DNA of 64,000 bases, taken from positions 3,483-67,482 of IMG/VR virus record IMGVR_UViG_3300003316_000080; one strand, 5' to 3'. Position numbers and translations under genes: made by a program. Numbering within the stretch: the stretch's first letter is position 1; every line of letters starts with the position of its first letter. This document shows positions 2,256-14,707 of the stretch, piece after piece. The notes under the pieces are model-generated. The model did not search any database. It worked only from the letters and a program-made list of their open reading frames with translations, and was not told where the DNA came from. Source of the DNA: a virus.

Positions 2256-3832
2256 TTCTGGTGTCGCGCCATGCCATCACACGCTACCTTGACCGAGAGC
2301 TAGAAACACACAAGTGGGTCAAGAAGCTGACAGAGCGTCAGCTGTGGCAGGAACTGAAGCAGCTGCGCACTGTCCCTCAGTTCAAGACTGACCCATGGCT
2401 GCACCAACTGGCGTGCTTCTATCTGGGCCTGCACTACCTGCGCTTCCTGTTCATCCTAGACATGGGGCTGGGCAAGTCGAAGTTGGTGATTGACCTGATC
2501 GAGCACCGTTTTCGGCAGAAGCGTCTCAGCATGCGCCGCGACGGACGCACAGCGCTGGTGATCGTTCCAGGCGTGCTGAATACGGTTGGATGGGGTGAGG
2601 ACATCGAGCGCCATTCACTCATGGAACCGCACCTGATCACGTGCGAGAACATTGAGCAGAAGCGCTATGAACTGCTGCACCCACAAGGTGAAGTGACCGT
2701 GATCGACATGCCGTCGCTTGCCCTAGCACTGTCCACCAAGAAGAAAGGCAAGGGTCGTGGCAAGTTGCTGGCAGACAAGCAGGCGATTGCACGCGCTCAG
2801 CAGTTGTACGGTTTCATTGGCGTTGATGAGACGCACAAGTACAAGAACCACGAAACCCTGTGGTACGACGTGCTCGATCCTCTGTGTGCAGCAGCCGACG
2901 AGGTGAAGGGGCTGACTGGAACCATCTTCAGTGCAAGTCCGATCGAGATGTGGCCGCAGTTTAATCTCGTCGACCGAGGTGAGACGTTCGAGAACCGTGG
3001 ACTCTTCCAGGCGGCCTTCTTCGACTCGAAGTCAGATCATGTGAAGGGGACTGTGTACACCTTCAGGCCTGAGAGGACACGTACTCTCAACAGGATGATG
3101 CAGCACCGCTCGATTCAGTATGACGAATCGGAGGTGCACGAACTTCCAGAGCGCGTCTATCGTCCGATCAGGATGGAACTGGCAGGCGAAGCGGACGAGC
3201 ATTACCGTCGCGCTCTGGAAGGTGTCATTAATGTTGGCGCCGCCGAGAGTAGCAAGCTAGATGGAGGCTGGGTGCGCATGCGCCAGATCTGCGGTGGCTA
3301 CCTGAAGTGGTCTGATGCACACGGAGCGCACAAGCTCATCTTTGCACAGAACCCGAAGTTGGACATGCTGATGCGCCTGCTGGAGGACATCGGAAGTAAG
3401 AAGGCTGTTGTGTGCCATGACTACACCGACAGCGCGGAACTGATCGAAGCGCGGTTTAAGAAGGAGGGCATCAAGTACGCCACGTGCTCAGGGCGGACGA
3501 AGGACAAACCGGCAGAACGCGCTCGCTTTCTCGATGATCCAACCTGCCGCGTCTTCTTGATGCAGAACGCGGCTGGGGGAACAGGCACTGACGGCCTGCA
3601 GAAGGTGTCCAACTACATGATCTTCTTTGAGTCGCCAGCCTCCCCGGGTCTGCGCAAGCAAGTAGAAAAGCGCATACATCGTCCAGGTCAGACACAGAGG
3701 GCGTTCTACTACGATTTGACATATGGGCGCACCGTCGATAGCGGCATCCGTGAAGCACACAAGCAGGGTTTTGACCTATACGAAGCCGTGATGTCTGGAC
3801 GCTCTTCGACCTTGAGAGGGCTCATGAGTTGA
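2252..3832 (+). CDS. SF2 helicase, SNF2/DEAH-like
   Basis: Motif I LDMGLGKS, motif II GVDETHKYKN, C-terminal helicase domain with GGTGTDG and HRPGQTQ. Confidence 0.7.
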   Translation: MILVSRHAITRYLDRELETHKWVKKLTERQLWQELKQLRTVPQFKTDPWLHQLACFYLGLHYLRFLFILDMGLGKSKLVIDLIEHRFRQKRLSMRRDGRTALVIVPGVLNTVGWGEDIERHSLMEPHLITCENIEQKRYELLHPQGEVTVIDMPSLALALSTKKKGKGRGKLLADKQAIARAQQLYGFIGVDETHKYKNHETLWYDVLDPLCAAADEVKGLTGTIFSASPIEMWPQFNLVDRGETFENRGLFQAAFFDSKSDHVKGTVYTFRPERTRTLNRMMQHRSIQYDESEVHELPERVYRPIRMELAGEADEHYRRALEGVINVGAAESSKLDGGWVRMRQICGGYLKWSDAHGAHKLIFAQNPKLDMLMRLLEDIGSKKAVVCHDYTDSAELIEARFKKEGIKYATCSGRTKDKPAERARFLDDPTCRVFLMQNAAGGTGTDGLQKVSNYMIFFESPASPGLRKQVEKRIHRPGQTQRAFYYDLTYGRTVDSGIREAHKQGFDLYEAVMSGRSSTLRGLMS

Positions 3833-8158: not shown

Positions 8159-10792
8159 ATGTCGTTTTTCTTCGCAGAGACAAAGCGCGCCAAGAAGACA
8201 GGCGCTCCGTCGAAGAAGGCCGTGATCCCCATCGCAAGCCTGCAGCGTGCCGGCTGCACTGTATGTCCGCGCAAGGCAGACTGGGACGACGGCATCAAGA
8301 CGCCACAGATGAAACCGGCCGGCCATCAGTCGCCGACGGTGTATCTGCTAGGCACGGCCCCGTCTGAGAAGGAAGACCGACTGGACGAGCCCTTTGTGTC
8401 CACAGCCTATGAAGAGGTGCTGTCGAAGTTGCCGGCGTCTCTGAGGCGGTATAGCCGCGTCGGCTATCTGACGCAGTGCAAGGCCGCCAGTAAAAACTTG
8501 ATGCTGGAGATGTCGCCGGACCACGCGGAGATCGAGTGCTGCCGTCCTCGCGTGATCGCAGACATCGAAGAGACGAAGCCGATTGTCGTGATCGGCATCG
8601 GCGACAAAGCGCTTAATTGGGCCCTCCCCTTCTCATCGGGCGTCACCTCGATCACGCATCGAGGCACCTTGTTTCCGGTGAAGTTCGGGACGCACACGTG
8701 CTGGTTTTACAGCGTCATGTTCCCGGCATATGTGCACCGAGAAAAGCGCAAGTATCCGACTGAGTACGAGATCGCGCTGACGCACGACCTACGCAATCTC
8801 GCTAAGTTGATCAACAACGAAGAGATTGGTGTTCCGAAGATCTACGCAGACAAGTGGGAAGAGGGTATCGAGATCGTGACAGGTCACGATGCCGGAGACT
8901 TCCAGCGTGTGGAGCGCGCACTTGCAGACATGGCAGCGCTGCCCGATGTCGCACTCGACATCGAAACCAATGGCCTGCGGCCCTGGCACTTGAACAAGCC
9001 CAGGTTGTGGACTGCCGCAGTAGGCACATTCGAGCGTGTGATCGCCTTCCCGATTGATCATCCTGACGGCTGGGGCGCTGACGCGCGCATCCGCAAGATG
9101 CACGGTCTGTTCGCTGAGTGGCTGTGGCAATCGCGCCGGAAGTGGGCACATAACCTTGCAATGGAACTGGAGTGGTTTAACTGGTTCTACAGTCCGCACG
9201 CGATCATGGGCAATGAGTGGGGCGACACGATGGCCCTTGCCCATGTACTCGACGAGCGCAAGGGCACGAAGTCATTGGAGGTGCAGACGATCATTGGCGC
9301 CGGCTTCAACCTGAAGTCCATGAGTCCAGTTGATCCGTCGTTGCCTGACTGGATCAGTAAGTACCCGATTAAGACGGTGCTGAAGTACAACGGTGGAGAC
9401 TCGAAATGGACGGACTTCCGTCGCCGCCAGCTGCAGCCGATCGTGGAGGCCGACGAAAAGCTCCATGACGTCTATCAGCACAAGATTCGAATGGCGCCGG
9501 CTTTGATCCTCACAGAGGCCAAGGGCCTACCGGTGTCTGTGCCGCGTGCTGAGAAGATGAATCGCGCACTGACGGAGCAACTGCACAAGATTGAAGACAA
9601 GCTGCGGGCTGATGTGGCTGTGCGCCGCCATACAACGCAGTTCGGCCAGTTCAGCCCGACGAACTCCGATCATGTGCTCGCGCTGATGGAAAAGACCCTC
9701 AAGCGCGATGAGATCTACATCATTGAGAAAGACGGGTCTGAGTCGAAGTCAGTCGCTGAAGAAGTGCTGGCGCTGATGCCTGAAGATGAGGTGCCATCAG
9801 CGAAGTTGATCCTGGAGCACCGGGGCATCTCCAAGCTGAAGTCGACGTATCTGGAGCCAGTGATCAAGGGCACGATGATCAGCGTCGATGGCTATGTGCA
9901 CTCGAAGTACAGCAGTCTGTTCGCCGCGACCCACCGCCTGAACTCTGAAGATCCCAACGCGCAGAACTGGCCTAAGCGCAAGCACAAGGAAGTTCGCTCG
10001 ATCTTCTACGCGGAAGATGATGAAGAGATTCTGGCGTGCGACTACGGCCAGATCGAGTTCCGCGTCGTGGGCATGTGCTCGGAGGACGACAACCTGTGCC
10101 GGGCCGTGTGGACCGGGTACGACGTGCACTTGCACTGGGCAGAGCGGATCGTCGCCCTGTATCCCAAGATCAAGGACTGGATCAGATCAGAGTTCGAGGT
10201 GGACTGGGATGAGAAGGGCATCAAGACGCTGCGCCAGGAGGCCAAGAACAAGTGGGTGTTTCCGCAGTTCTTCGGTGCCTCGATCAAGTCGTGTGCAGCC
10301 TCTCTGCACTTGCCTGAAGAGGTCGCGCAGGATCTGGCTGATGAACTATGGGATGAGTTCCGAGGCGTCAAGCGCTGGCAAGACAAGTTGATGGAGTCGT
10401 TTGCGCGCAAGCTCTACGTGGAGACGCTGGACGGTGCGCGCCGTCGTGGGCCCATGACCAAAAACGAGATCATCAACATGCCGATCCAGGGCACAGCGGC
10501 CCGCATCGTGCAGACCGCGCATGCAGCTTTGGCTGAACGCGGCTTCATCATGGATCGCGGCGTGTATATCCCATCGCTGAACGTACATGATGACCTCTCA
10601 ACCTGGAGCAAGAAGGCAGAGCGGGAGGCCAACGTGAAGATCATCGTCGAAGAGATGTGCAAGCACCGATTTGACTGGATCAACGTGCCGCTGCTGGTGG
10701 AAGTGTCGGCCGGGCCTGACTGGTCCGACCTGACCGAGATCGGCAAGTACAGCAGCCATGAGCTGTTCAACATCAGGAACCCTTACCAATGA
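8159..10792 (+). CDS. DNA polymerase, family A, with N-terminal uracil-DNA glycosylase (family 4-like) domain
   Basis: N-term GTAPSEKEDRLDEPFV (UDG family 4 motif); exo DIETNG; pol motifs DYGQIEFRV, QGTAARIV, NVHDDL. Confidence 0.85.
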   Translation: MSFFFAETKRAKKTGAPSKKAVIPIASLQRAGCTVCPRKADWDDGIKTPQMKPAGHQSPTVYLLGTAPSEKEDRLDEPFVSTAYEEVLSKLPASLRRYSRVGYLTQCKAASKNLMLEMSPDHAEIECCRPRVIADIEETKPIVVIGIGDKALNWALPFSSGVTSITHRGTLFPVKFGTHTCWFYSVMFPAYVHREKRKYPTEYEIALTHDLRNLAKLINNEEIGVPKIYADKWEEGIEIVTGHDAGDFQRVERALADMAALPDVALDIETNGLRPWHLNKPRLWTAAVGTFERVIAFPIDHPDGWGADARIRKMHGLFAEWLWQSRRKWAHNLAMELEWFNWFYSPHAIMGNEWGDTMALAHVLDERKGTKSLEVQTIIGAGFNLKSMSPVDPSLPDWISKYPIKTVLKYNGGDSKWTDFRRRQLQPIVEADEKLHDVYQHKIRMAPALILTEAKGLPVSVPRAEKMNRALTEQLHKIEDKLRADVAVRRHTTQFGQFSPTNSDHVLALMEKTLKRDEIYIIEKDGSESKSVAEEVLALMPEDEVPSAKLILEHRGISKLKSTYLEPVIKGTMISVDGYVHSKYSSLFAATHRLNSEDPNAQNWPKRKHKEVRSIFYAEDDEEILACDYGQIEFRVVGMCSEDDNLCRAVWTGYDVHLHWAERIVALYPKIKDWIRSEFEVDWDEKGIKTLRQEAKNKWVFPQFFGASIKSCAASLHLPEEVAQDLADELWDEFRGVKRWQDKLMESFARKLYVETLDGARRRGPMTKNEIINMPIQGTAARIVQTAHAALAERGFIMDRGVYIPSLNVHDDLSTWSKKAEREANVKIIVEEMCKHRFDWINVPLLVEVSAGPDWSDLTEIGKYSSHELFNIRNPYQ

Positions 10793-11754
10793 CACGACGC
10801 AAACTGGCCGATGAAGTCACGCACGGTAAAGACCTCGCGCAGCGCTGGCGACCTCGCAATCTGGGTGAGGTGGTCGGACAAAGCGCAGTGGTTCGCTCGC
10901 TCGAAGCGATGCTGAAGCGCGAGACGCGTCCGCACTGCTTCATCTTCACTGGACCCTCGGGCGTGGGCAAGACCACACTGGCGCGGATCGTCGCTCAGGA
11001 GTTGGGGGCACAGCACAACATTGTGGAGATCGACGCTGCGACCAACACGGGCGTTGACGCAATGCGTGATGTGCTGGCAGGCACGATCTACAGCGGCTTT
11101 GGCAGCAACTCCAAGTTCTATCTGATCGACGAGGCACACATGCTCTCGAAGGCAGCGTGGAACTCGATGTTGAAGACGCTGGAGGAACCACCCGACCACG
11201 TTTACTTCGCGATCTGCACGACGGAGCCAGAGAAGCTGCCGGCAACGATCAGCACACGCGGTCCTGTCTATGCACTGAAGTCTGTGCCGCGCAAGGACAT
11301 CAGCAACCACCTGATCCTGATTGCTGAAGAAGAGAGCCTGGAAGTCACAGATGAGGGGCTGGATAGGATCGCAGAGGCTGCTGGCGGCTCGCTGCGCGCT
11401 GCGATCAACATGATGGTTGCAGCAGACGGTGTGAGGGGTGATGACCTGGATGACATCATCGAACGTGCAGATGCGGGCGGCAACAAGCAGGTCATTGATC
11501 TGGCCCGCGCATTGGTCAACGACCAACTGACGTGGACGAAGCTGACGGGCATCCTGAAGGATCTGGAGGGCCAGAGCGCGGAGGGCGTCCGCATTGTTGT
11601 GGTCAACTTCACAGCTGCGTGCTTGATGAAGGCCACATCAGACAAGCAGATCGCACGGCTGTTGAACGTGCTGCACGCCTTCTCCACCCCATACACCACA
11701 GCCGACAAGATGGCACCCTTGCTCCTCTCGTTCGGCAACCTTCTGTATAAGTGA
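10789..11754 (+). CDS. AAA+ clamp-loader subunit (DnaX/RFC-like)
   Basis: Walker A GPSGVGKTT, Walker B YLIDEAHML, sensor TRGP. Confidence 0.7.
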   Translation: MTRRKLADEVTHGKDLAQRWRPRNLGEVVGQSAVVRSLEAMLKRETRPHCFIFTGPSGVGKTTLARIVAQELGAQHNIVEIDAATNTGVDAMRDVLAGTIYSGFGSNSKFYLIDEAHMLSKAAWNSMLKTLEEPPDHVYFAICTTEPEKLPATISTRGPVYALKSVPRKDISNHLILIAEEESLEVTDEGLDRIAEAAGGSLRAAINMMVAADGVRGDDLDDIIERADAGGNKQVIDLARALVNDQLTWTKLTGILKDLEGQSAEGVRIVVVNFTAACLMKATSDKQIARLLNVLHAFSTPYTTADKMAPLLLSFGNLLYK

Positions 11755-12257
11755 TCATGGACATCGCCTATTTCCGCTCGCGCATCAAGGTCAGCCAGCA
11801 CACGCTGGCGGAAGATCTGGAGATCCATGCTGACCATATGGAGAAGATCGGCCGTAAGTCAGCAGCAGCAGCCCGGGCAGAGGCCAAGGCCAAGCAGGCG
11901 CGCGACGAGACAGAGGCGAGGTTGATAAAAGATTTACTGGAGGACAACGAGCGCATGGCGCTCAACAAGGCGCAGGCGACTGCCAAGGCGTCGCGCGAGT
12001 ATCAGCAGGCCCAGTCCGTATATCTCGACGCACAGAACGAACTTGCCGAATGGCAAGAGGTGGAGAAGGCGTGGTATCAGCGTGGCTTCGATCTGCGGGC
12101 GCTCGTCGAGTTGTTCTCGGCCCAGTACTTCCAGATCGATCCCACTGCCGGCGCAGGCCGGGCTGAATCGCGCCGCTCCGTGTCTGAATACATGAGCAAT
12201 CGAGACAAGGGCGAAGAGAAGCGCAACCGCCAACGACGGAGCTTGAACGATGAGTGA
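11751..12257 (+). CDS. hypothetical coiled-coil protein
   Basis: Start overlaps clamp-loader stop; charged alpha-helical composition. Confidence 0.45.
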   Translation: MIMDIAYFRSRIKVSQHTLAEDLEIHADHMEKIGRKSAAAARAEAKAKQARDETEARLIKDLLEDNERMALNKAQATAKASREYQQAQSVYLDAQNELAEWQEVEKAWYQRGFDLRALVELFSAQYFQIDPTAGAGRAESRRSVSEYMSNRDKGEEKRNRQRRSLNDE

Positions 12258-12375
12258 ATTTTTGGCATTGGTAGTGGGCGCAGTCGGCGGCGTGCTGGCG
12301 GTCTACATCTGTGTGCGGGTCGCCTCAGCCGCATATTTCAAGTCACTGAGGCAACACAATGAGGAAACCAAATGA
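12250..12375 (+). CDS. small hydrophobic protein (41 aa)
   Basis: ATG..TGA ORF MSEFLALVVGAVGGVLAVYICVRVASAAYFKSLRQHNEETK, one predicted TM helix; too short for the ORF track. Confidence 0.3.
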   Translation: MSEFLALVVGAVGGVLAVYICVRVASAAYFKSLRQHNEETK

Positions 12376-13601
12376 GAAACCGTGACGATGATGACCGTGG
12401 TTCGCGCCGTGGTCGCGATGATGACGATGACCGCCGCAGCAGCCGTGGCCGTGACAGCGGTTCGAGCCGTGGCGGTTTCGTCTACAAGCAGCGCAGCGCC
12501 GAAGAGAACCGCAAGCGCGCCGAGAACACCGGACGAGACTTCGAGTCGATTTACAAGGACGGTGTCAACCTATACAAGGTCAAGGACGGCGACAACAGCG
12601 TCCGTGTGCTGCCGCCGACGTTCAAGGGCGCCCAGCACTACGGACTCGACATCCAGGTCCACTTCGGCATCGGGCCCGACCGCGCGACGTACCTGTGCCT
12701 CAACAAGATGCTGGACAAGCCGTGCCCGATCTGCGAGGCACGCCAAGAAGCGCAGCGTGACGGGGACGACGAACTGGCGAAGGAACTGGCACCCAAGCAG
12801 CGTGTTCTCGTCGCCCTGATCGATCGTGATGATGAGAAGGCCGGTGTGCAGATCTGGGGCATGCCCTGGACCGTCGACCGTGACCTGGCCCAGGTTGCCG
12901 TCGATCGCAAGACCAAGGAAGTGCTGCCGATCGACCATCCTGAAGAAGGGTATGACGTCTTCTTCACGAAGACGGGCAAAGAGCGCAACACGAAGTACGG
13001 CGGCATCTCTGTGGACCGGCAGCCGTCAGAACTCGGCCGGCGCGGCGACGAGTGGCTGGACTGGATTCAGGAACACCCGCTGGACACGCTGCTGAACTAC
13101 GCCAGTTACGATGACATCGCCAAGGCGTTCAACGGCGGCGGCTCTGGTGGCGGTTCGCGTCGTCGCGATCGCAGCGATGACGACGATGACCGCTCTTCGC
13201 GTCGTGGCCGTGATCGTGACGATGACCGCAAGAAGGACGATGTCCTGTCGTGGGATGACGTTCACGGCATGAAGCCGCGCGAACTCGAAGACCTCGCAGC
13301 TGAGCACGGCATTAAGTCGTCCAAGTACGACGATGACGAAGAACTGGCTGACGCGATCTGTGAAAAGCTGGACATCAGCAAGCCCAAGCCGCGACGCTCG
13401 CCTGGACGTGATGGCGATGACGACGATGACCGCTCTTCGCGTCGTGGCCGTGATCGTGATGACGATTCCAATGAGAAGACGGCGCGTCGTCGGTCCAATG
13501 ATGACGACGAGGACGACACCCCGCGCACCCGTCGCCGTGAGGCCAATGACGACGATGACGCGGAAGAAGGTCTGCGCAAGATGCGCCGCCGCGCGGAGTG
13601 A
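12372..13601 (+). CDS. gp32-like single-stranded DNA-binding protein with Arg/Asp-rich repeat termini
   Basis: H-x12-C-x8-C-x2-C (HFGIGPDRATYLCLNKMLDKPCPIC) matches the T4 gp32 zinc-site pattern; located between clamp loader and RecA-like gene. Confidence 0.55.
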   Translation: MRNRDDDDRGSRRGRDDDDDRRSSRGRDSGSSRGGFVYKQRSAEENRKRAENTGRDFESIYKDGVNLYKVKDGDNSVRVLPPTFKGAQHYGLDIQVHFGIGPDRATYLCLNKMLDKPCPICEARQEAQRDGDDELAKELAPKQRVLVALIDRDDEKAGVQIWGMPWTVDRDLAQVAVDRKTKEVLPIDHPEEGYDVFFTKTGKERNTKYGGISVDRQPSELGRRGDEWLDWIQEHPLDTLLNYASYDDIAKAFNGGGSGGGSRRRDRSDDDDDRSSRRGRDRDDDRKKDDVLSWDDVHGMKPRELEDLAAEHGIKSSKYDDDEELADAICEKLDISKPKPRRSPGRDGDDDDDRSSRRGRDRDDDSNEKTARRRSNDDDEDDTPRTRRREANDDDDAEEGLRKMRRRAE

Positions 13602-14707
13602 TCATGGCAGCACGCAAAACGACCAAGCCTGCGGTGAAGCAGGCAGCGCCCAAGTCGGTCGCGGCTCGCAAGCGTGCTGTTCTCCGTGATGTGGATGAGG
13701 GCTCTGACGAGTTCGTCGAGCCCTCCTACTTCTCTGCGGGGGACAGCAAAACCAACATCGAGTTCATCTCAACTGGATGCACGATCCTGGACGAGGCGCT
13801 GGGTGGGGGTGTCGCTGAAGGACGTGTGCTGAATGTCGTCGGTGACTCGTCCACGGGCAAGACACTGCTGGCAATGGAGATCGCGGCCAACTTCGCGCTG
13901 AAGCATGCGGAAGGACTCGTCCGTTACGCTGAAGCAGAACTGGCCTTCGACGATGATTATGCGGAAGCGATGGGCATGGACCTGTCGCGTGTCGAGCGCA
14001 ACAGCGGCTCGCGCCTCGTGGGCACCGTCGAGCAGTGGCACGATGATCTCGTCGACTTCATGAAGAGGCTGAAGGGTCGTCCTGGCCTGTACATCCTCGA
14101 CAGCCTCGACGCGATCTCCGATGACGATGAGGTGAAGGCCGAGTTCGGTGAAGCCAGCTACGGCGGCAAGAAGCCCAAGCTGATCTCCCAGCTGTTCAGG
14201 CGCACGATCAATGATCTGCATGCGGCCAACGTGACGCTGATGATCGTCTCGCAGACGCGAGACAAGATCGGTGTGACCTTCGGGCCGACGAAGACGCGAT
14301 CAGGCGGCAAGGCGCTGGAGTTCTATTCGTCACAGATCGTTTGGCTGGCGCATGTCGGCAAGATGGACAAGACGATCGATGGCATCAAGCGCGTGATCGG
14401 TCATGAGGTCCGCGCCAAGGTCAGCAAGAACAAGTGCGGACTGGCGCACCGGACTGTCGACTATCCCGTGCTGTATGGCTACGGAATCGACGACATGATG
14501 GCGGGCGTGACGTGGCTGATCGAGAACAAGTGCGATGAAGCTCTGGAAGAACTCGAACTGACCAAGGCCGGTGCGAAGACTTCAGTGGCGGCCATGCGCA
14601 ACAAGCCGGAGCGCGCTCGCGAGTTTCGTCCGAAGATGCGCAAGATCGTGCGTAGGGAATGGGCGCGCATCGAAAACCTGTTCTTGCCTAAGGCCCGTAA
14701 ATACTGA
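13598..14707 (+). CDS. RecA/UvsX-like recombinase
   Basis: FISTGCTILDEALGGGVAEGRVLNVVGDSSTGKTLLA matches the RecA N-terminal/Walker A region. Confidence 0.8.
   Translation: MIMAARKTTKPAVKQAAPKSVAARKRAVLRDVDEGSDEFVEPSYFSAGDSKTNIEFISTGCTILDEALGGGVAEGRVLNVVGDSSTGKTLLAMEIAANFALKHAEGLVRYAEAELAFDDDYAEAMGMDLSRVERNSGSRLVGTVEQWHDDLVDFMKRLKGRPGLYILDSLDAISDDDEVKAEFGEASYGGKKPKLISQLFRRTINDLHAANVTLMIVSQTRDKIGVTFGPTKTRSGGKALEFYSSQIVWLAHVGKMDKTIDGIKRVIGHEVRAKVSKNKCGLAHRTVDYPVLYGYGIDDMMAGVTWLIENKCDEALEELELTKAGAKTSVAAMRNKPERAREFRPKMRKIVRREWARIENLFLPKARKY

Follow-up and report, generated by a model that had tools for sequence, protein, structure and literature searches.

The window analysed here, a 64,000-nt stretch of the viral record IMGVR_UViG_3300003316_000080 (positions 3,483 to 67,482), apparently represents most of a 67.5-kb uncultivated phage genome. 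It contains a gene whose product is supported as a gp32-type single-stranded DNA-binding protein (SSB). The open reading frame (ORF), at 12372..13601 on the plus strand, was found exactly as the original prediction had placed it. Its product combines a gp32-type OB core, three disordered and nearly neutral segments of Arg/Asp repeats (with Ser and Gly), an acidic SAP/HeH-like domain between the second and third of these segments, and a basic C-terminal helix. This architecture is conserved in more than 100 relatives, and the repeat units are homogenized at the DNA level within genes. The features of the locus are given below, where pLDDT is the predicted local distance difference test score of the structure model.

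12361..12365, plus strand: GAGGA ribosome-binding site, 6 nt 5' of the ATG, from reading of the sequence
12372..13601, plus strand: gp32-type SSB gene, complete, 409 aa plus stop, from the ORF list, Pfam, PHROGs, and homologue and fold matches
12372..12476, plus strand: N-terminal disordered Arg/Asp/Ser/Gly extension, residues 1–35, MRNRDDDDRGSRRGRDDDDDRRSSRGRDSGSSRGG, with units of about 12 aa like RDDDDRGSRRG (pLDDT <50, composition)
12477..12539, plus strand: conserved segment FVYKQRSAEENRKRAENTGRDF, residues 36–56, with Y38, R41, and R49 invariant
12540..13136, plus strand: gp32-type OB-fold core, residues 57–255 (pLDDT >90, Foldseek, Pfam over residues 71–210)
12660..12734, plus strand: predicted Zn-binding subdomain with the ligand codons H97 (12660–12662), C109 (12696–12698), C118 (12723–12725), and C121 (12732–12734), from the hhalign alignment and the joint loss of ligands in homologues
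13131..13241, plus strand: disordered linker, Gly/Ser then Arg/Asp, residues 254–290 (pLDDT <50, composition)
13174..13219, plus strand: direct repeat copy 1, 46 nt exact, extending as 52 nt at 96% identity to 13225, encoding DDDDDRSSRRGRDRD
13242..13379, plus strand: acidic three-helix SAP/HeH-like (Rho_N-like) domain, residues 291–336, with the invariant C330 in the motif LADAICE
13380..13556, plus strand: disordered Arg/Asp C-terminal tail, residues 337–395 (pLDDT <50)
13414..13459, plus strand: direct repeat copy 2, 240 nt (80 codons) 3' of copy 1
13557..13598, plus strand: basic C-terminal helix EEGLRKMRRRAE, residues 396–409, family motif RLxxMRxRR

The assignment as a gp32-type SSB, made originally from the sequence alone, is supported by a Pfam match, a fold search, an alignment of the Cys ligands, and a conserved gene context of replisome and recombination functions. 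The hidden Markov model (HMM) check that had been proposed for the core gave a match to PF08804 (gp32) at 41.9 bits, above the gathering cut-off of 26.8 (E 1.5e-10, residues 71–210). In PHROGs, the best family, with a full-length match at 1.8e-64, was phrog_34306, of ‘unknown function’; the SSB family phrog_1192 (‘single strand DNA binding protein’) was matched at 6.5e-20. An NCBIfam search returned no match. In an AlphaFold model built on 109 homologues, the core (residues 57–255) and the mid domain reached pLDDT values above 90 and the tails stayed below 50. A Foldseek search of the PDB with the modelled core gave six significant matches, all of them to gp32 of T4 or RB69, with E-values from 5.6e-7 to 1.5e-5 and target-normalised TM scores of 0.51–0.63; they include RB69 gp32 (2a1k, E 5.6e-7, TM 0.63), T4 gp32 (1gpc, E 2e-6), 8gme, and 2atq. 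Sequence identity to gp32 in the structural alignment is about 15%. When the family was compared with T4 gp32 by hhalign (E 0.0021, probability 14%), residues 70–124 only were aligned, pairing VRVLPP with IRFLPS and C109/C118/C121 with C77/C87/C90 of T4.

A word-indexed homologue search retrieved the best 120 of 346 relatives, all 356–482 aa long, and the close-family counts given below rest on an alignment of 121 sequences whose cores are about 50% identical. Among representatives of clusters formed at 50% identity, a HMMER scan with the core detected 780 at E ≤ 1e-30 and 3850 at E ≤ 1e-3.

The window SSB has an intact predicted His/Cys3 zinc site, with the candidate ligands H97, C109, C118, and C121 in the spacing H-x11-C-x8-C-x2-C. 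The original prediction was thus right about the site and off by one in its first spacer, which had been read as x12. The T4 gp32 ligands H64, C77, C87, and C90 follow H-x12-C-x9-C-x2-C (PMC3012046), in which both the H–C spacer and the longer C–C spacer exceed those of the window SSB by one residue. The expected conservation of this pattern in homologues holds in part: the site is complete in 73 of the 121 close homologues and missing in the other 48 (40%). In these 48, C118 and C121 have been lost together, replaced by Asp plus a variable residue, with C109 usually kept. H97 is changed to Asn only in homologues that also lack the C118/C121 pair, and H89 is invariant in all 121. The site is also absent from the Vibrio Mardecavirus. 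The Zn subdomain must be stabilised in another way in proteins without the ligands.

Arg/Asp repeat termini were predicted and are present, at residues 1–35 in the N-terminal part and at residues 262–283 and 338–395 in the C-terminal part. They had been called unusual, a description that does not hold within their clade, where such tails are typical and shared across the 121 relatives. All three tails are kept in 121/121 close family members, with lengths of 27–96 aa for the N-tail and 12–84 aa for the C-tail. The mean N-tail composition in the 121 proteins is R.33, K.00, D.23, S.16, and G.16, and the N-tail of the window SSB (residues 1–35) has R.31, D.29, and K 0. In total, the N-tails hold 2227 Arg versus 1 Lys, compared with an R/(R+K) of 0.47 in the cores of the same proteins; the ratio is 0.90 in the linker and 0.89 in the C-tail. 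The N-tail has a fraction of charged residues (FCR) of 0.60 ± 0.07 and a net charge per residue (NCPR) of +0.05 ± 0.03, a spread narrower, by our own estimate, than the value of about 0.1 expected for random signs at similar length and charge density. The two C-terminal tail segments are likewise net-neutral (NCPR −0.02 and +0.05).

A comparison at the codon level was made with a 96%-identical relative, which is represented by one Logan assembly only (SRR31214434). The N-tail is identical at 35/35 residues, with 2 synonymous and 0 nonsynonymous codon changes, and the core has 30 synonymous changes and 1 nonsynonymous change. Synonymous and nonsynonymous changes number 9 and 2 in the linker, together with 2 indel codons, and 9 and 5 in the C-tail, together with 3 indel codons. 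Judged from these alignments, the tails are constrained in composition and faster-evolving in sequence and length, and they are probably under selection. The alternate-frame ORFs ascribed to the repeats do exist and are low-complexity, for example, MTTMT and poly-Ser runs.

In the wider family, highly charged tails are the rule (FCR 0.54), and they comprise 42 Arg-type, 26 Lys-type, 52 mixed, and 17 low-charge cases. The median N-tail of the wider-family representatives is 9 aa, and a long N-terminal extension occurs in a subset only. The Arg content of the tails correlates with the flanking GC content (r 0.55) and weakly with core composition (r 0.3–0.4). The varied tail flavours and the correlation with GC suggest that the conserved property is charge density and balance, and that the Arg/Asp flavour is clade-specific and partly compositional. 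An explanation of the Arg preference as mere GC bias was considered and holds in part, yet it does not account for the 2227:1 ratio in the N-tails. As for charge patterning, the C-tail is blockier than shuffled sequences (z 5.9).

Two elements of the C-terminal half, the folded domain between the repeat copies and the basic C-terminal motif, had been overlooked in the original prediction. The former adopts a helix-extended-loop-helix (HeH) fold in the model. In Pfam, it reached Rho_N at 13.7 bits, below the cut-off of 24.9 (E 0.062), and gave no SAP match. The segment is acidic across the family (NCPR −0.17) and lacks a basic nucleic-acid-binding surface; because of this strong acidity, protein docking is more plausible than DNA binding. 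The SAP domain of SLX4, for instance, docks MUS81. In two homologues of the family (L061 and L036), a Cys-rich mini-domain with the pattern C-x2-C-x12-C-x-C, for example CIACSDTGKNSKGGFCVCAKGKK, stands in place of the SAP-like domain. The C-terminal helix (residues 396–408) has pLDDT values of 55–72, and L401 and R405 are nearly invariant. The protein ends in GLRKMRRRAE, an instance of the motif RLxxMRxRR seen in the aligned C-termini of the family. Related basic ends are found in the homologues of Vibrio phage MAR10 (VRGMRRNRR) and Bacillus phage CP-51 (LAARKNRRK), and the homologue of Salmonella phage SSU5 has a T4-like acidic end, DDLLAELDAL. One family representative (P0259) combines a gp32-type core with an Arg/Asp/Lys-rich tail ending in DDDDIPF, the tip motif of E. 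coli SSB, which suggests that terminal docking motifs have been swapped between SSB families.

The recurring segment of about 45 nt that had been noticed near 13171 and 13411 is an exact 46-nt direct repeat at 13174–13219 and 13414–13459, or 52 nt at 96% identity. No match to it arose in 100 dinucleotide-preserving shuffles of the window (0 expected). When synonymous codons were shuffled with the protein kept, the longest repeat averaged 15 nt and reached at most 20 nt versus the 46 nt observed, so the identity of the DNA goes beyond what the repeated peptide alone would give. Repeats were further surveyed in 80 IMG/VR loci, with the shuffle test applied to 59 non-redundant genes. Exact intragenic repeats of lineage-specific sequence were found, of 49 nt in L036, 42 nt in L027, 38 nt in L019 and in Edwardsiella phage vB_EpM_ZHS, 34 nt in L061, and 32 nt in L080, and repeats of 24–26 nt are common to the N- and C-tails in L007 and L013. 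The exact repeats beat at least 99 of 100 synonymous shuffles in 16 of the 59 genes. In the window, in L027, and in ZHS, the SAP-like domain lies between the two copies, and the 34-nt copies of L061 flank the Cys-rich mini-domain that stands in for it. The window copies are identical to each other, but those of the 96% relative are not: they have diverged from one another and from the window by 5 substitutions and 2 different 6-nt indels. All three indels between the two phages lie inside repeats, which, together with the lineage-specific long repeats across the family, lends comparative support to the suggestion that the locus is recombination-prone. The recurrence of lineage-specific repeats, their excess over shuffles, and the divergence of the copies in the 96% relative indicate that the tail units evolve in concert, through gene conversion or successive duplications. 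The 46-nt repeat itself would then be a by-product of intragenic conversion or duplication among tail units of about 12 aa and would carry no independent DNA signal.

The SSB gene lies within a replication and recombination module. Genes for a DnaB-like helicase, a second helicase, a primase, a clamp, PolA (8159–10792), and a clamp loader are located upstream, and genes for a UvsX/RecA-like recombinase, a RuvC-like resolvase, and SbcD downstream. The succession PolA, clamp loader, two proteins of about 170 and about 45 aa, SSB, and RecA is common to Edwardsiella phage vB_EpM_ZHS and Vibrio phage MAR10, and the gene order of the SSB region is also found in the 96%-identical metagenomic phage. 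The closest cultured phages, Edwardsiella ZHS and the Vibrio Mardecavirus, have 42–49% identity in the SSB. Further near-identical relatives, which might polarise the gene-conversion event, were sought by exact-pattern scans of IMG/VR and of JGI metagenome contigs, and none was found. A literature search on phage ZHS returned nothing relevant.

Several smaller observations were made around the gene. Between the clamp loader and the SSB, an apparently helical protein of 168 aa is encoded at 11751–12257 (+), which is syntenic in ZHS, MAR10, and L003. It has no PHROG match and no significant Pfam match; an accessory subunit of the clamp loader and a UvsY-like mediator are candidates for its role. 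It is followed by a 41-aa ORF at 12250–12375 (+), beginning MSEFLALVVGAVGGVLAVYICVRVASAAYF, that resembles a single transmembrane helix and lies inside the replication module; a small ORF of 41–46 aa occupies the same position in ZHS, MAR10, and the Logan relative. Tandem Repeats Finder reported 2.8 copies of a 13-nt unit, TGAGGAAACCAAA, at 12347–12381, covering the ribosome-binding site and start codon of the SSB gene; they may have arisen by chance or when a short part of the translation-initiation region was duplicated. On the 3' side, the mechanically called ORF of the UvsX/RecA-like gene (13598–14707) starts at a GTG, 13598, inside the SSB stop region. The likelier start is the ATG at 13604, 3 nt past the SSB stop, which is also where the gene has been called in the close relative L003. 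T4 gp32 regulates its own translation through its mRNA leader. A T4-like autoregulation was considered for the window SSB and set aside, since the start codon of the gene and the stop of the 41-aa ORF upstream of it overlap as ATGA; no free 5' leader exists, and autoregulation of this kind has no obvious substrate.

Taken as a whole, the observations are best explained, probably though by no means certainly, by a protein that binds ssDNA in the replication and recombination of an uncultivated phage of about 67 kb. The core would bind ssDNA in its cleft, and the FxYxxRxA...KR segment N-terminal of the core would give head-to-tail cooperativity like the B-domain of T4 gp32. In the model, this segment (residues 36–56) contains a helix at 43–49 with pLDDT values of about 60–65, and the pattern FxYxxRxA....KR is conserved. 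The C-terminal module would replace the acidic A-domain of T4 in tethering, cleft gating, and partner recruitment. Its polyampholyte linkers may act as flexible tethers, with Asp clusters that transiently fill the basic DNA cleft as an electrostatic gate, and the tail Arg residues may contact either DNA or Asp clusters on adjoining SSB molecules. Components of the replisome and recombination partners, for example the UvsX-like recombinase encoded next to the SSB, could dock onto the acidic SAP-like domain and the basic helix at the end. A partner-interaction role of the tails, already raised in the original prediction, may be inferred.

A number of results weigh against this reading. PDB sequence searches with the protein and with the 109-sequence family profile found no gp32, so that the kinship is seen only by the Pfam profile, hhalign, and the fold comparison, and the hhalign alignment to T4 is itself given just the E-value and probability quoted above. 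The homologues in GenBank are labelled ‘hypothetical protein’ or ‘single-stranded DNA-binding domain protein’. The correspondence of residues 36–56 to the basic B domain of T4 gp32 is proposed by eye, as the hhalign alignment is confined to residues 70–124 and gives no statistically supported match to T4 residues 1–21. The family can do without the Zn site, which is missing in 48 of the 121 homologues. Whether Arg or Lys is used partly tracks GC, and charge density and balance may outweigh Arg/Asp as such. The charge patterning of the N-tail and linker is no blockier than that of shuffles (mean z −0.16 and −0.32), which weakens the simple pictures in which an Asp block mimics DNA; a DNA-mimic or zipper model of this type would be favoured by blocky charge, which is seen in the C-tail only. 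Finally, a six-frame scan of the window for other Arg/Asp-rich proteins that might be matched partners found none in a real gene frame.

A protein with a gp32-like fold may have another role, such as a recombination mediator or regulator. Such a role would agree with the ‘unknown function’ of the best PHROG family, the lack of an NCBIfam match, and a tail architecture far from that of T4, but the fold, the Pfam match, and the place of the gene between the clamp loader and the UvsX-like recombinase favour an SSB, and this alternative is considered very improbable. It is also improbable that the tails are neutral low-complexity expansions, produced by slippage or recombination of GAY/CGN-rich DNA and tolerated because they are disordered. 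The confinement of indels between close relatives to the repeats, the wide range of N-tail and C-tail lengths, the near absence of an N-tail in many wider-family representatives, and the partial dependence of composition on GC are what neutral expansion would produce. However, charge density and balance are narrow in 121 proteins whose cores are only about half identical, Lys is kept out of the tails of proteins in whose cores it is common, close relatives differ mostly by synonymous substitutions even in the tails, and no close member lacks any of the three tails. A further alternative is that the 46-nt copies are a built-in switch. Recombination between them would excise exactly 80 codons in frame, that is, one repeat unit and the SAP-like domain, and could yield two SSB isoforms or an exchange of the C-terminal cassette. 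The copies do lie on either side of a folded domain at a distance, 240 nt, that is a multiple of three; other exact repeats flank the cassette elsewhere (38–42 nt in ZHS and L027, 34 nt in L061); the SAP-like domain is detected by HMM in only 48 of 149 family representatives, so the cassette has been gained and lost; and the phage encodes its own recombinase. Nevertheless, the domain is kept in all 121 close homologues with C330 invariant, so deletion products have not been fixed, and no deletion variant was observed. In other relatives, the longest repeats do not flank the cassette and are arranged either in tandem or with copies in both the N-tail and the C-tail, and the placement of the repeats fits general homogenization better than a dedicated switch, which is decidedly unlikely.

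More weight can be given to the possibility, still a minor one, that the Arg/Asp segments are mixed-charge domains rich in arginine (R-MCDs), in which multivalent Arg–Asp and Arg–DNA contacts drive SSB–ssDNA condensates, as factories for replication and recombination, that concentrate the phage replisome. The FCR of about 0.6, the net charge near zero, the use of Arg almost without Lys, the predicted disorder, and the multivalency given by three separate tails per molecule are consistent with this proposal. It is reported that pure RD repeats condense in a length-dependent manner and that Arg-to-Lys substitution abolishes the condensation (Greig et al., 10.1101/771592), and that T4 gp32 forms liquid-like droplets under crowding (PMC11951158). 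By the criterion of Greig et al., a mixed-charge domain (MCD) has an FCR ≥ 0.7 in a 60-aa window and a positive/negative ratio of 1 ± 0.3. The SSB studied here misses it narrowly, as its best 60-aa window has an FCR of 0.683 and a ratio of 0.71, and only 23 of the 121 relatives pass. The N-tail and linker charges, as stated, are no blockier than shuffles. Moreover, Lys/Glu tails are used in the wider family, where Lys-type and mixed tails occur beside the Arg-type, and Arg content partly follows GC, so an Arg-specific mechanism is disfavoured as the conserved function. A literature search for mixed-charge domains or tails in phage SSBs found no paper. A broader scenario, in which this large phage SSB clade has swapped the classical acidic tail for regions that work like the R-MCDs of eukaryotic nuclear speckles and drive ssDNA–SSB–recombinase condensates, and in which intragenic recombination keeps the units identical and shuffles or deletes the C-terminal cassette, seems rather unlikely. 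If true, the cassette, SAP-like or Cys-rich, would be a rapidly evolvable interaction module.

The reading preferred here, a phage SSB of replication and recombination, is of interest mainly because its mixed-charge architecture is conserved, its tip has the opposite polarity, it carries a SAP-like cassette, and its coding repeats clearly bear the mark of concerted evolution. Among cooperative SSBs, gp32 is the textbook case, and it is used as a reagent in isothermal amplification. From a relative of gp32 that is widespread, it would follow that SSB tails are built on a modular logic that other electrostatics can also realise. The window SSB would also provide a compact natural test system for the effects of charge balance and Arg/Lys choice on cooperativity and autoinhibition, for condensates, and for the concerted evolution of coding repeats in phages. 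In addition, annotation would be gained for phrog_34306 and the GenBank homologues, which are now ‘unknown’ or ‘hypothetical’.

Among the relatives, ZHS_54 of Edwardsiella phage vB_EpM_ZHS, MAR10_073 of Vibrio phage MAR10/SSP002 (Mardecavirus), and phrog_34306 agree with the window SSB in family, gene order, and domain order. The ZHS and MAR10 homologues differ in that their core identity is 42–49% and that their annotation is either hypothetical or given in generic terms. In ZHS_54, the Arg/Asp tails are longer still, the Cys ligands are intact, and the SAP-like domain is flanked by a 38-nt exact repeat peculiar to that gene, whereas the MAR10 homologue has lost the Cys ligands, has an N-tail of just 14 aa, and contains Lys in its linkers. 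Compared with the SAP, LEM, and Rho N-terminal (HeH) domains, the folded domain of the window SSB differs in giving no significant sequence match and in its strong acidity. E. coli SSB, which has a disordered linker and the acidic tip DDDIPF, resembles the window SSB in its design, in which a low-complexity linker joins the core that binds DNA to a short docking motif at the end. It differs in OB family and oligomeric state, and the window SSB has a basic tip and a polyampholyte linker.

The closest known system is T4 and RB69 gp32, with which the window SSB has in common an OB-fold core with a His/Cys3 Zn subdomain and a place among replisome and recombination genes, as well as, for T4, a probable three-part plan in which a putative cooperativity element at the N-terminus and an interaction region at the C-terminus enclose the core (PMC3012046). 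Unlike T4 gp32, the window SSB has an extra 35-aa Arg/Asp extension before the B-like segment. In T4 gp32, the A-domain is purely acidic and disordered and ends in DLDDLLNDL, whereas the window SSB has net-neutral Arg/Asp linkers, an acidic SAP-like domain, and a basic helix; an acidic disordered C-terminal A-domain is therefore not found here, the tail being net-neutral, the tip basic, and the acidity located in the folded SAP-like domain. The R-MCDs of eukaryotic nuclear speckles (Greig et al.) are similar to the tails in being disordered and R/D-rich, with a net charge near zero and a preference for Arg over Lys. In contrast to them, the segments of the window SSB are shorter, fall slightly below the charge threshold, and belong to a bacteriophage DNA-binding protein.

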